From Stylophora pistillata (lineage: Eukaryota), in the NCBI RefSeq assembly GCF_002571385.2, contig NW_019218085.1, forward strand, positions 1 to 64,000: 64,000 nucleotides of DNA, given 5' to 3'. Positions 19,508 through 53,349 of the stretch are shown piece by piece. Each line of letters starts with the position of its first letter. Within the stretch, counting starts at the first letter, position 1. The translations under genes were made by a program, and so were the position numbers. The notes beneath the pieces were generated by a model. That model did no database searches, had not been told where the DNA came from, and saw nothing but the letters and a program-made list of their open reading frames with translations.

Positions 19508-21858
19508 ATGAGTGGAAACGAACGGTTTGATTATGGGAAGGCCGTCCAGGCAAATTGTGCCAACTGTGGGGTTGTACAGATTCCTTCCAGGGTGTCGCTT
19601 AACACTTCATGCCCACGATGTAAAGGGGTTCTTGTTTTGAACACTGTCGACTTGCACTCACAAAGGAGAAGCACAGACAATCGAGAGCAAAACTTACTTC
19701 TCCAGGATGATAACGAAGATTTGGAGAACACAACACTGGCTCCTTCGACTGAGGATTCTGCCGAGTTGGACACGGTGTCTCTACAACATCTGAGCTTAGC
19801 GACTGATGAAAACCTTTCTGGTTTACCGCTACAGGAGAGCTTTGAAGCAAGTTCAAGTCGACGAAAAGCAAGCACGTACCCAAGTAAACTTTCGAAGACT
19901 CCGACTGAGGGAAATGACGAAAACGGAATAAATGGCGTGTGCCAGACTTGTGGTAGGTAGTTTATGTAACAGTTACGATTAGTGGAGAAATCGAATTGAC
20001 AATTACATAGTCGGAACTTCCTCCAAGCCGATGAAAATTTAAACTGACTTCCAGTTAATAAGCATAAGAGAGGACCAACAAGAATCACAATCATCTTTAC
20101 ACATCTTTGCTTTTTCTGTTATTTTAGGGGAGTTGAACTCGACCCACGAATGTCTGTCTTGCTTCATAGCAGTATTCAAGCGAGGAGTTATCTCTGGAAA
20201 GAATCGAAGTCTTGTCGTGTACATTATTCCGAAGGAAAAATTCGATTTGGTAAGATAAGGATTTTTCTCTCCTCTAGCCGCTAGACATTTCCTTTTGAAT
20301 TAGTTCCGAGAATTTGGTGTTGAATCAAGATAGCACTTTCTACATCATAACTGTTCGCGCGTTTTTATTGCCTGTATGGATATTATAGTGAGAGGGTAAA
20401 CAAGTAGTCGTGCTCATAAACTATCAGTCAAATCCTTCAAAAAATCTGTGAGTTTGATCGCACGAAAGTTGTTCCTTAAGAAAACCGTGTGGGGGCACAA
20501 TACTTACTGCGTCCTCAACTACACAACATTTCCAAACTTTTGAACAATTATGTACATCTAATTGAATAGAAGTTTACAATATTGGTCGAGAAACTCCTAC
20601 CAAAGGTATTAGATTAGATTCAAGATAACGTAGACATTGACCAATCTGTTCATGGTCAATTTCGGTCTCACAGGTGTTTGCCAAAATCGTCCAAAATGAA
20701 GCAGCTGCATACGAAGGAACCGAGATAGCTGTGATCGATGACAAAAGAACCTTCTTCTGCTATCATCCTCAAATGGCAATCCAAAATGAGTTAACAATCA
20801 TTTTTAAAATGGATTGTGGCGAATGTTTCGCTTTGATCAGTCCTGCGGTAAGTAACACTTTAAATCCTGAACAATTCTCAGTCTGAGCTTTATTACTACA
20901 TTTTAATTTACTCTTTAGCATAAATTGTTGTGGATAGCCTAGGATTAGCCGGGCATTAAGAGCCTGGGGCTTGCCAAGTTTAATACCACTTAATAGAATT
21001 ACCCTGCTCATTATAATAATAATTTACATTTCTAGAGCGCTAAAATTATAAAATATTCTAAAGCGCTTTACAACATATTAACTACAAATATTAAAATGAT
21101 AAACGACAAGTATTTCATTGTTGGGTTTGATTCATTGTTGGGTTTGATTCTAGAATAGTACTTATTCTACGCTGTATACAGATCTTCTTAAAATGGCAGG
21201 TCGACCAGGCACCCTATTTGCATCCTGTTATGTTAGGACATTCTTAAAATGAAAATAAATTTGTTATCAACTAGCCAAAAAGTTGCGTAATCCGAGAGTA
21301 CAAAAACTGAGAATTGATAATATTTCAATAGTCAACCACCCTTGGTGTCCAACATGTACTTGCAAAAAGTGAAGAGAGAATATTTCCTGGCGCTCATGTC
21401 AAGCTGGTCACTGCATATGTTGGAGAGGAAAATACTCTTCGTGAAGACAAAGTGAGAATGGCACTGCTGAGTGGACAAGCGAGACTGGGCATTCTCATTC
21501 CTACTAAGGTATGGCTTTAGTAAAATTGATATCTTTAACCAACTTCTGTGTTCGTATTGTTCGAGTCACCAATAACAAAACTGAAGATTTTCTTCCTCTT
21601 CAGCACTGATAACATTCATATCAGATCTTTTCATTCACAACCCAACTTCTAAAATTGCAATTGACTCGAACATCATTTCAATTTGGCTTTACCAATTGTG
21701 TACATTTCTCTATTTAATTGTTATTAGAAATTGGTTATGATTTAATTAACCAATCGAATTTTTTTTCATGATCTTCTAATTTGTTTTTGCAGAGCTCCCC
21801 ATCGATAACAGTCTTACCTCTAAAGGGGTTGCTTCTTCAGATAGTAAACTGTTTGTAG
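19508..21858 (+). CDS. Gene C: cytosolic protein - CxxC..CxxC ribbon, acidic region with TRAF motifs, stand-alone UPA-like domain
   Basis: Exons 19508-19952, 20128-20249, 20674-20847, 21332-21508 and 21793-21858 splice in phase. Motifs CANC-x13-CPRC, PLQES, PTEGND. Exon pattern and sequence parallel genes E and G. Last exon tentative. Confidence 0.7.
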
Positions 21859-50389: not shown

Positions 50390-53349
50390 ATGAATCCGGA
50401 AGGAAGACAGGATGATTCGGTAATTGTAGGCGTTCTAATCATTTATTTTGCTTTGAAATTCCCTAAGTGGAGTTCTCTTTTCAAACAGTGAAGAGTTTAC
50501 AGTCACGAAAGCATCAATTACGTACAAACTCTCTGCAAAGCCGGTCAAGCCGGTTACGGAACAAACAAACTTTCACTGTCAGCATTTTTAAATTGTTTCG
50601 ACGAAGAGAGTAACATTCCCTGAGCATCTATCATGTTTATAATCAACAATAAAGATGAAATGATAAAATAAGTTCCTTTCTTTTTAGACGAGTCATGGAG
50701 CCTCTGATGAAGCAAATGATTTCTCCGTTGAAGAAAATGAAGTCTACGAGGAAGAATCAACTGTGATAGGCGAAACCGAAAGTGCTTCCGACGTTTCAAC
50801 TGAAACATTCTATTCCACGAGACGATCACAGAGCGACACCTTTGAGGATAGCATATCAAGACTGTCTTGTGTTTGCAACCGCGAAAATAACGCCGCTGAT
50901 AGAAGTAATTATTGTGGAAAATACACAAATGCAAAATCTCTTCGGAGTGGGGAATGTTCTGACAGGGTTTCGGTGGAAGAACAAACCATCACATCTTCTG
51001 TTAATGGCCTTGAAGTACTTTATCTGACCCTTGCAAGAGGAATGGAATCGGTGCCACCAATCCAAGAGACATCTAGCGTTGTTCAAGTAGCATCCACAAC
51101 AAACAGTGCAAATGTAGGCACACGCGCTGGTTGCTCCGTGTTCCGAGGCGGAAGCGTTCCAGTAGAAGGTAAGTAGCTTGTTCGCACCTTGTGTTCACCA
51201 TAGGAAGTTTGAATGGAGAATATCCAAAAGAAAGTTTGTACTGGTTGTCACAATGATTCAAAATGTTTCAAATTTATCAATAACAGTGCTGAGTTTTAGT
51301 TTCATAATTCTCCTTGAATATCTCTTGTAATAAAATAATTAGATAATTTCTAGTATGGTAGTATATGTTGAAGTAAAAAAATTGAACTTTGTGGCCACCG
51401 GTTCCGTTTTGTTTAACGATAAATAAGCAAATTACGGTTGCTTTGAGAAGTGAATGTGATCGAAGACAGAAGTTTGAAAATCTTCTAAGTTAAGAGTTAT
51501 GTCTACAGGCGACTTATGAGGGTATTCACAGTTGGCAACAATGCTTTTCTTTTTTTTTTGGCATTTGCAGTGTAATAGGTCAATCCGAACCTAGCAAAAA
51601 GTGCTAAAACTACTTTTCTTAAACTCCTCAATCGGACACTTTCAAGTTTCTATTTAAAATAATCAGGATCAACTAGTGCTGTTACTGTTAGAGTTGCAGT
51701 AATTGCTGTCAATGTTTTGTCATAGCGTTGACCATCTTTTCATCTGTTTTAATAAACGCACCGATTTTACCTTACTTTATCACTTCACATTTAGGTTTTA
51801 CAGACTTGTCAGTGCTTTATCCATGCACACCTCAACAATTGACACTGTTTGTTCTAAAAAAGGATCATCAGCGATTAAATATAATGACCTTTTCAGTACA
51901 CTGTGTGGAACAGTCAAGGCAGGTAAAGTAAAACTGTTATTGATATTCGAGCTTAGAACCAATCCTTCTTTTAAATCCAATAACAGATATAGTTAATTAG
52001 CGCGCCAACAAAAGAGATGGATGCATAGGTTTTTTTTTTTCGAAAAGAACGCCAGTCCGGCAAATTTAATTTTTTTGTATATACCACACAGATGAATAGT
52101 GCTCTTCACGCGCGCCGATTGATTGGTTCGGAAGCAGCTGTAGAGACAAATTCGCGCGTCAACAAATTAATTTTCGAACACTTTTTGGTATACTGACAGA
52201 AAAAGACTTTTTTCTTTTGGTTTCTGTATGGCGTATACTTAAGCAGTTATTTACCTCAGTGTTTGTGAAAGCGGTGGATATTGACCACTATTCACCTCCG
52301 CTCAAGTGAATGATTGTTAAATAGTCTTTGGCCTCGTTGTTTCAATGACAATTTGCAAGTAGCCACTTGACGTCCTGCACCTACAATCTAACTCGGGTTC
52401 CAGAAATTTCTAACCGTAATGCCAGCCTATTTTAAGACTTCAAAGTTAAAATCGAGAATTTTGGGGGGAAAACTTCTTGTTTTCTCCTCTAACATAGGCA
52501 AGAGCAAGTTTGATGGTAAAACAGCTAGAGCAACACCTACACACCCGTCTACAACTTGTTCCATGTGGTGATGAATACTCCTACCAAGAACAAAATAAAC
52601 ATTTCCATCCCCTGACCTTGGACAATGAAATAAAAATAAAGTTTGAGTTGCGGAAGAAAGTACAGAGAAAATTCCGACTTCAGGAGGAACAGGAAATTTT
52701 CCAGGTGTGTCAGATTATATGAAAACAACCAGGTGTTCCATTAAAAAAAACTTGGATCAACATCAGAATTTTGAACTGCATGGAATGACCTTTTTTCGTC
52801 TACCGACCAAGCATTCTTTTTTACTCACTTTACACAGGTTCCACTGGTTCGCATTATGTCCTTGAGCCAGAATAGAATTCCAAGTCCTATTGTTCAGGTG
52901 CATGTAGAGCCTCTATGTGCACCTGGGGAAGTTTGCGAGGACCATTTACGAATGACGCTGGATTACGGAAGAACCATTCAAAATATATTGATACCAATAT
53001 GGGTAAATGCTATCAATTTCTTGTTATAATTATGTAATTAAAATTATTGCAGTTGACAACATTTCCTTGCTGACAGCAGCAAATTACTCTCAAGTACATG
53101 AAGAGTTATACTAGCCTTGTGATAATAAAATTCTGCCATGTTTTTGTTTGCGACCTCATTTTGGTTTGATCTATGCCCTGTTTTCGTCACTAAAGATAAT
53201 GCCATACAAATAATATTCTAAGTTCTGATATAATACCTAATTCAAGTTTTATCAAATAGAATAAATGAAGATCATTACGTAAATTAAACATCACTCATCT
53301 CCATTTCTATACTTACTTTCAGTCTGCCAGACCACCTGAAACCAGTTAG
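50390..53349 (+). CDS. Gene G: paralog of gene E; acidic N-terminus, PIQET TRAF motif, stand-alone UPA-like domain
   Basis: Exons 50390-50419, 50688-51168, 51804 (or 51795)-51922, 52498-52704, 52838-53002 and 53323-53349 splice in phase. Motifs QLTLFVLKK...FSVHCVEQ, VKQLEQHL, IFQ|VPLVRI. Confidence 0.8.

Follow-up and report, generated by a model that had tools for sequence, protein, structure and literature searches.

The window considered here is a stretch of 64,000 nucleotides from the coral Stylophora pistillata (contig NW_019218085.1, positions 1 to 64,000), and it includes three genes (C, E, and G) that are expressed and lie head to head with TNF-receptor genes (Table 1). Gene C is LOC111336431; its protein P0001 is XP_022798277.1, and the start of NCBI isoform X1 lies at 19415. 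Four splice joints of gene C are present in both raw RNA reads and RNA contigs. Five joints of gene G are found in the RNA contigs of one of four runs, and raw-read depth over this gene is zero in the two raw-read RNA runs. Gene E has low RNA depth, its joints are not among the matches listed, and its exon ends are placed by homology to G; it has an orthologue in Pocillopora damicornis (P0051). The products of the three genes are predicted to be soluble and to combine a cysteine knuckle and an acidic linker with a UPA fold at the C terminus. Aspartate and glutamate together make up 14% (C), 22% (E), and 16% (G) of the linkers, and models predict disorder (pLDDT <50) for residues 48-142 of gene C and for most of residues 6-172 of the G orthologue.

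Table 1. Features of the window; positions are counted from its first nucleotide.
Feature	Position	Strand	Basis or remark
Receptor B	13695..18440	-	TNFR repeats, membrane helix, ZU5, UPA, death domain; RNA joints, strand, Pfam, model
Gene C, first coding exon	19508..19952	+	Zinc ribbon and disordered linker; RNA joint and strand
Gene C, zinc ribbon CxxC..CxxC	19556-19621	+	Within first coding exon
C motif PLQES	19826..19840	+	TRAF2/3-type match; doubtful
Gene C, conserved 15-residue block	19883..19927	+	Homologue comparison; docking model
C motif PTEGND	19901-19918	+	TRAF6-type; inside conserved block
Gene C, exons 2-4	20128-20249, 20674-20847, 21332-21508	+	UPA domain; RNA joints, model
Gene C, exon 5	22142..22187	+	Transcripts join it to a CARD exon absent here (N at 22337)
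Receptor D, last exons only	23598..24703	-	UPA and tail; death domain not found
Gene E, exons	25928-25954, 26389-26830, 28255-28382, 28843-29046, 29828-29992	+	Acidic linker, Cys knuckle, UPA
E motif PREE	26788..26799	+	Uninformative
Decayed CARD-exon copy	41416..41724	+	At 3' end of receptor F; stops and frame breaks
Receptor F	42528..49760	-	TNFR repeats, membrane helix, ZU5, UPA-like region, short tail; divergent pair with G
Gene G, span 50390..53365	50688-51168, 51795-51922, 52498-52704, 52838-53002, 53323-	+	Acidic linker, decayed Cys knuckle, UPA; putative start exon 50390-50425
G motif, first SVEE	50724..50735	+	Not conserved
G motif, second SVEE	50970..50981	+	Conservation at background level
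G motif PIQET	51057..51071	+	Matches PxQxT; probable lineage-specific chance match

Pfam recognizes TNFR_c6, ZU5, and Death (26.7 bits) in receptor B and leaves its UPA below the cut-off (E 0.0034); this receptor lies head to head with gene C, its 5' exon extending to at least 19258. Only the final exons of receptor D are found in the window, next to a break in the assembly (N at 24885). The D-E pairing is therefore read across a gap rather than on continuous sequence; the TNFR and ZU5 exons of D are found outside the window, at C334:2599-4578. No death domain is found in receptor F, and the F/G pair is duplicated on C1609. The pairing is recurrent: B-type receptors, two intact and one broken, each face a gene of C type, each of three ZU5 genes faces one of E/G type, and one TNFR lies opposite a UPA gene on C334. 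On C658, a partner-type gene is present with no TNFR found within the 40 kb examined. The receptors also have TRAF matches of their own, which were considered as a counter-argument and set aside because they are not conserved either: PHEGTE of receptor F is lost in the C1609 paralogue, and SLEE of receptor B reads PVEE and SVEG in two paralogues.

Structural models predict that the C-terminal domain of the partner proteins is a UPA beta-sandwich, as in UNC5, PIDD, ankyrin, and FIIND. The top Foldseek match to the gene C model (residues 157-307) is UNC5B (E 1.2e-6), and its comparison with the NLRP1 UPA gives a Z of 10.0. For the model of the G orthologue (P0076), ranks 1 to 5 among 48,161 chains are the UPA regions of UNC5B (Z 12.1, rmsd 2.5, 137 residues aligned), CARD8 (8.9), NLRP1 (8.9 and 8.2), and ankyrin-B (7.7). 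By sequence, Pfam UPA has no match in the partner proteins, no Pfam family exceeds the cut-off in the partner exons or the annotated C protein, and Pfam detects no ZU5 ahead of the partner UPA, in a region modeled as disordered. Gene C yields just a weak SPT4 zinc-ribbon match (E 0.004) among PDB sequences, the annotated C protein gives no lead in the ESM Atlas (best feature score 0.77, best TM 0.23), and none of 18 candidates scored in a protein search with exon 3 of gene G. A profile of exon 4 retrieves 40 matches, mostly single-exon fragments, of which 6 to 7 seem to be unrelated (repeat proteins); the linker is found in only three of the 40 (P0016, P0025, and P0027).

A CARD follows the UPA in gene C only; E and G stop after the UPA. 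The annotated C protein lacks this domain because of the assembly break at 22337. The CARD exon is located at G000:C334:17829-18134, adjoining a 96.7% copy of positions 21823-22336, and the C-to-CARD splice is present in transcript-derived proteins P0006-P0010. The domain scores 28.2 bits against Pfam CARD, and its model superposes on chain 5wvc_D (Z 15.7, rmsd 1.6). UPA exons and the CARD exon are colinear at three of four metagenome loci; all four loci lack the first exon and are therefore uninformative on the motifs discussed below.

A preliminary description of this DNA proposed that the partner proteins contain TRAF-binding motifs. PLQES, PREE, and PIQET translate where it placed them, PTEGND and the two SVEE are also located, and all six sit on the forward strand in the large first coding exon of their genes. 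It cautioned that short motifs can arise by chance. Among shuffled exons, at least one match to any of three TRAF motif classes appears in 44% for C, 62% for E, and 65% for G (5,000 shuffles per exon; a post hoc, uncorrected test). For single classes, the shuffle frequency is 2.3% for the PIQET type, 8.7% for the PLQES type, 7.7% for the PTEGND type, and 47% for the PREE type; three [PSAT]x[QE]E matches occur in 4.9% of the shuffles of G.

Comparison with relatives, measured against flanking sequence as the preliminary description had suggested, leaves only PTEG[N/H]D of gene C conserved above background; the remaining five motifs are likely chance matches. PIQET, proposed as a TRAF2/3 site, reads ETHET, QTHET, QTHET, and QIHET in the four homologues of G; P, I, and Q are replaced with both flanks kept, Pro or Gln is retained in none of the four, and the motif is most likely a lineage-specific chance match. 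It thereby fails the refutation criterion that the preliminary description had itself set, loss of the motif in orthologues. The first SVEE is lost in the same four (SSEA, SSDA, SNGA, SSDA), and the second reads SDEE in homologues, still within the loose [PSAT]x[QE]E. PREE of gene E is PCEE in Pocillopora, where background identity is 68% and the window around the motif is less conserved than 90% of windows. In gene C, three homologue clusters, which are related to each other and consist of first-exon fragments only, have PLQER, PLKEH, and PLQEG in place of PLQES (Ser in none of the three, Gln to Lys in one), and the nine-residue PLQES window is conserved no better than 21% of linker windows. 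PLQE is nevertheless retained in two of the three clusters, inside an invariant SGLPL stretch, and a Pro-x-Gln aligns with it in both C-type paralogues on C334, so the chance verdict on PLQES may be wrong. PTEG[N/H]D is present in all three clusters, at exon identities of 73, 65, and 49%, and the 15-residue block around it hardly varies. Eight of the nine positions of its window are invariant, versus a linker background of 30%; the three motif-defining residues never vary, and the sole varying position is the free +4. The permutation P for that window is 0.0004, or 0.015 when any linker window is allowed, values that are optimistic because columns are taken as independent.

This motif is likely a TRAF6 docking site, as judged from its pattern and from modeling. 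Passages of 10.1101/2022.05.08.491058 and PMC11291154 give the TRAF6 pattern as PxExx[FYWHDE], with position preferences, and PTEGND fits it: its +3 residue is small, its +5 residue is acidic, and proline does not recur further on. The S. pistillata genome has a TRAF6 (E 7e-44 to 1lb4), with its MATH domain at G000:C180:167134-167595, that retains the pocket residues R45, F62, L109-L110-A111, and Y126. A complex model of the C linker with the coral TRAF6 MATH domain scores 0.81, versus 0.16 for the best of three controls, and adopts the known register; the mark for this score is attained by 51 of 78 solved complexes and by 2 of 108 mismatched pairs, in a validation whose range does not extend to peptides or disordered chains. 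At least 67% of contacts agree between docking runs, partner pLDDT is at least 47, and the confident contacts fall on C residues 129-142, with zero on PLQES. Because TRAF6-peptide complexes are already solved (1lb5, 1lb6), the docking model may owe its score to those known structures. The tightest binders in a TRAF6 library, as described in part of 10.1101/2022.05.08.491058, have Asn at -2 and Trp at +5; the C motif has neither, so its affinity would be modest.

The reading we prefer, with a probability slightly short of even, is that C, E, and G are predicted UPA partners, C with a CARD, that C binds TRAF6 through PTEG[N/H]D and reaches its receptor by UPA-UPA contact, and that the other five motifs are chance. 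On this reading C is a receptor-linked UPA-CARD adaptor with one likely TRAF6 site, comparable to EDARADD and TRADD, its receptor binding being putative. The chances that TRAF6 docks on this site, as modeled, are about evenly balanced. More tentatively, and by analogy with NLRP1 and CARD8, receptor B clustered by ligand might gather C through the UPA. C might then present TRAF6 with its docking site and a caspase or CARD adaptor with its CARD, so that the signal divides into a cell-death and an NF-kB branch. E and G, which have neither a CARD nor a conserved TRAF site, may be UPA-only proteins that scaffold or dampen the death-domain-less receptors. From the original proposal of TRAF-binding partners, the anatomy of receptor-linked soluble adaptors and the TRAF6-like behavior of the C motif survive, and the other five motifs probably fall away.

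The full proposal, in which C, E, and G would each provide TRAF sites in trans and serve mainly the death-domain-less receptors D and F, is very improbable. Every partner does have a match, G exceeds its shuffles both in its three loose matches (P 0.049) and in PxQxT (P 0.023), and SDEE and PCEE in the homologues of G and E still fit [PSAT]x[QE]E. Against this stand the loss of PIQET and the first SVEE in every homologue of G and the background conservation of PREE and the second SVEE; moreover, two of two further intact E/G-type first exons on C334 (183 and 206 residues) have no match of any TRAF class, and the matches of different family members fall at unaligned positions. The partners of D and F have no TRAF motif in common. 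The surviving motif belongs to C, which faces receptor B, a death-domain receptor, so the suggested rescue of D and F is not supported.

A lesser but serious possibility is that PTEGND is also a chance match, that the partners work through UPA and CARD only, and that the conserved block of C binds something else, either a kinase at its Thr-Pro or, as a docking strand, the protein's own UPA or the nearby Cys cluster. The block exceeds the motif, with five invariant residues upstream of Thr-Pro, and could serve a kinase or other partner; one S. pistillata transcript differs within its 15 residues. A TRAF6-type match arises in 7.7% of the shuffles of C and a match of any class in 44%, part of 10.1101/2022.05.08.491058 reports 5,185 such matches in disordered human sequence, and the two intact C-type paralogues on C334 have no TRAF6 match. 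The E/G-type first exon ends in a similar Pro-Val-Glu ahead of the UPA, which is not a TRAF6 match; PTEG of C and this Pro-Val-Glu are placed together in one alignment and apart in another, and the exon boundaries differ. Chance alone is harder to reconcile with variation confined to the free +4 position, with a model that holds the block apart from the UPA (pLDDT <50), or with a complex model that picks the PTEGND block. MAVS combines a CARD with TRAF sites, and C could be a similar two-site scaffold, with PLQE for a TRAF2/3-type protein, PTEGND for TRAF6, and a CARD that polymerizes independently of the neighboring receptor. This is improbable; the persistence of PLQE agrees with it, as do the 116 MATH matches in the genome, many of them TRAF2/3-like, but the critical Gln is replaced by Lys in one cluster, position five is S, R, H, or G, and the recurrent head-to-head linkage and common UPA point to the receptor.

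A broader extension of the preferred adaptor reading, which we regard as rather unlikely, is that coral TNF-receptor signaling is built of paired cassettes, each TNFR-ZU5-UPA receptor having its own co-transcribed UPA adaptor, with C a ready-made UPA-CARD protein joining receptor to TRAF6 and caspase. C would then correspond to the active fragment that NLRP1 and CARD8 release only by cleavage, and the cassettes would be an animal equivalent of paired genes for immune receptors. Parts of PMC4979521 list Acropora digitifera TNFRs with ZU5 hits and name the signaling of invertebrate TNF receptors without death domains as an open question. TRAF motifs do not answer that question, and candidate adaptors are now named. 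No description of the partner genes was found in the literature searched on coral or cnidarian TNFR-ZU5, UPA-CARD, and invertebrate TNFR-UPA, a search with most subscription papers outside it. What emerges from this coral immune gene cluster is one precise candidate TRAF6 site and, if a UPA-based adaptor is true, an extension of UPA-driven assembly from inflammasomes to TNF receptors.

The preliminary description overstates the case in saying that known TNFRs have these motifs in the receptor tail. According to passages of PMC10106650 and PMC8195603, respectively, EDAR relies on EDARADD, an adaptor whose N-terminal part contains a TRAF-binding sequence, and TNFR1 on TRADD, a recruiter of TRAF2. 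Like these proteins, C would be a soluble adaptor that supplies a TNF receptor with TRAF binding by way of a domain also present in the receptor tail. That domain is a death domain in EDARADD and TRADD and the UPA here, and C adds a CARD; none of C, E, and G has a receptor-pairing death domain. In contrast to those systems, the coral receptor genes lie head to head with their adaptor genes, and such pairs have been duplicated together. The TRAF6 motif of C resembles that of CD40 and RANK in pattern, disorder, small +3, acidic +5, and modeled register on the MATH groove, but lies in a soluble UPA-CARD protein. Receptor B has the ZU5-UPA-death-domain tail of UNC5, PIDD, and ankyrin, and the best structural match of the partners is the UNC5B UPA; unlike those proteins, receptor B has a TNFR-type ectodomain, and the partners have a UPA without ZU5 or death domain. 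UPA oligomers promote CARD filaments in NLRP1 and CARD8, as described in part of PMC7794386, and the C-terminal fragments of both share with C the order UPA then CARD. The UPA of C is 10-12% identical to theirs, and by Z the nearest matches to its CARD are apoptosome CARDs. C has no ZU5 before its UPA, so that cleavage would not be needed to free it; in that place are a zinc ribbon and the linker that bears the TRAF6-type site.

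The soluble partner genes C, E and G, which lie head to head with the TNF-receptor genes B, D and F, encode proteins to which Pfam assigns no family name. In the AlphaFold2 model of P0076, an orthologue of G (27-row alignment), disorder reaches to about residue 172, and confidence is high between about 190 and 346; its top five structural matches are UPA regions (UNC5B, CARD8, two of NLRP1, and ankyrin-B; Z 12.1 to 7.7), and Foldseek agrees. Ahead of the UPA, E and G retain a Leu/Met-x-x-Leu/Val-Pro segment and one resembling Lys-Ile-Pro-Val, together with a Cys knuckle. The predicted structure of C comprises a zinc ribbon, a disordered linker (48-142), a UPA (157-307) and a CARD (327-425). 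A CARD follows exon 5 in five transcript-derived proteins of gene C's 90% cluster, the CARD exon sits 430 bases behind a near-identical copy of C exon 5 on scaffold C334 of the same genome, and three of four metagenome loci carry the UPA and CARD exons in colinear order. The CARD exon is missing from the window after the N at 22337; it was lost at this assembly break, and the NCBI C protein therefore stops short of the CARD, which is annotated separately as the 102-residue protein P0005. Receptor B has the layout TNFR-TM-ZU5-UPA-DD; no death domain is detectable in receptors D and F.

Gene C is Stylophora pistillata LOC111336431, its own NCBI record being returned by a search with its first exon. 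For B, C, F and G, exon joints come from RNA compared with window 13200-33000 and 42500-56500 (G from contigs of just one of four runs); E exons were placed by homology, its joints being absent among the RNA matches listed. According to the RNA, B and C run on opposite strands and their 5' ends adjoin. One RNA contig crosses G's inferred first intron unspliced, which would bring an early stop of translation; because of this contig, its decayed Cys knuckle and its low expression, gene G may be degenerating.

The head-to-head layout is repeated on scaffold C1609 and several times on C334; for one partner-type gene, on scaffold C658, no TNFR was found in the 40 kb covered. Three ZU5 genes on C334, for which upstream TNFR repeats were not found, are possibly receptors minus the ligand-binding part. 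At their 3' ends, F-type receptors carry decayed copies of the CARD exon, relics from duplication of a unit containing C's last exon. D and the C1609 paralogue share F's C-terminal sequence type at their ends.

Coordinates of features in the window and on scaffolds C334 and C1609 of the S. pistillata genome (G000)
Feature	Position	Remark
Single-N breaks	window 22337, 24885	remove C's CARD exon and D's TNFR and ZU5 exons
Start of C334	G000:C334:1-19000	holds these exons
ZU5 genes facing E/G-type partner	G000:C334:41597-46413, 100610-101558, 129769-130704	membrane-like segment, ZU5, UPA start
C-type paralogues	G000:C334:110397-110957, 137991-138536, 199475-199906	
Arg-Arg-Ser-[Ser/Thr]-Asp-x-Arg-Glu in C	window 19667-19690	shared with the C-type paralogues; resembles a basophilic kinase site
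Decayed CARD exon copies	window 40533-40592, 41416-41724; G000:C1609:5155-5463	
Tandem copy of F's 27-residue C-terminal stretch	window 42383-42632	after F's last exon
G inferred first intron	window 50426-50687	
tRNA-like repeats	window 9718-11990	about nine, 247-base each; inverted block around N at 11034
Transposon-like frames between and within receptor genes	window 12223-13457, 45594-46764, 9088-9802	taken to be THAP/DDE-like and exonuclease-like
Two diverged gene copies, presumably FDXACB1-like	window 38300-41470, 57700-61400	Rossmann-like N-terminus, ferredoxin-fold anticodon-binding-like C-terminus; first copy broken, partly duplicated across gap at 40594-41016

The preliminary description reported six TRAF-like motifs in the partners: PLQES and PTEGND in C, PREE in E, and PIQET and two SVEE in G. 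All are located (PLQES, PREE and PIQET translate as described), but just one stands as a good TRAF6 candidate. When each partner first exon was shuffled 5,000 times, some TRAF class was matched at least once in 44% (C), 62% (E) and 65% (G) of shuffles, and stricter single matches in 2.3% (PIQET), 8.7% (PLQES) and 7.7% (PTEGND). Some TRAF match occurs in seven of nine partner first exons taken from the genome and none in two, and the matches occupy unaligned positions. Given the shuffles and these unaligned matches, mere presence of a motif carries little weight.

Conservation separates the six. In four homologues of G (the paralogue on C1609, P0084 of Pocillopora meandrina, P0076 and P0077, at 49-53% identity), PIQET is replaced by ETHET, QTHET, QTHET and QIHET, with the flanks kept on both sides; its Pro and Gln are therefore private to this copy of G, and the headline motif is most likely a chance match. 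The first SVEE is lost in homologues, and the second becomes SDEE, which fits the loose pattern at background-level conservation. PREE reads PCEE in Pocillopora (two near-identical proteins, 68% identity), in a motif window that 90% of windows exceed in conservation. C was compared with three homologue clusters (73, 65 and 49% identity; one representative each), the four sequences standing in for 24 stored C-type sequences having both sites. PLQES becomes PLQER, PLKEH and PLQEG; PTEGND reads PTEGND, PTEGND and PTEGHD, within a block in which 14 of 15 positions never vary, the linker figure being 30% (P 0.0004 by permutation for the fixed window, 0.015 anywhere in the linker). The TRAF6 match is absent from both intact C-type paralogues on C334, in which a Pro-x-Gln aligns with the PLQ of C. 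An N-terminal Gln-Thr-x-Glu-Glu in all three C334 C-type paralogues fits the loose TRAF2 pattern.

PTEGND matches PxExx[FYWHDE]; in the available text of two sources, small residues are preferred at +3 of the TRAF6 motif and the +5 residue can be acidic (10.1101/2022.05.08.491058; PMC11291154). The genome holds 116 TRAF MATH-domain matches, many tandem-clustered, far above the few TRAF copies named in the accessible part of the genome paper; one is a clear TRAF6 with pocket residues kept. A modelled complex pairs this MATH domain with residues 98-148 of C, a stretch that includes both C motifs; it scores 0.81 against 0.16 for the best control, and the mark is attained by 51 of 78 solved complexes and by 2 of 108 mismatched pairs. 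Runs have at least 67% of contacts in common, with partner pLDDT at least 47, and Pro132 and Glu134 of C are set against residues corresponding to the Pro pocket and the Glu-capped helix of the human protein. Because similar complexes are already solved, the model shows likeness, not binding; PTEGND alone among the six is a good candidate TRAF6 site.

The proposal that partners supply TRAF motifs in trans, mostly for the death-domain-less receptors D and F, is supported in part, by one candidate, but C partners receptor B, which has a death domain. C is most likely the dedicated adaptor of B. By analogy with NLRP1 and CARD8, in which UPA promotes assembly (PMC7794386, available text), it would be recruited through its UPA and would present its CARD and TRAF6 site; E and G, without a TRAF site, would act through UPA only, as scaffolds or dampers.

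Of greater interest than the motifs are the paired candidate adaptors with UPA or UPA-CARD; no account of them was found in the literature searched. Acropora TNFRs with ZU5 are already recorded (PMC4979521, supplement). The accessible text of the S. pistillata genome paper (PMC5730576) reports TNFR and TRAF3 expansions; the word ZU5 is absent from it and from that of a TNFR ancestry preprint (10.1101/2021.12.26.474206). The mode proposed for C, an adaptor supplying TRAF binding, is that described for EDARADD (PMC10106650) and TRADD (PMC8195603) in the available portions of those papers.
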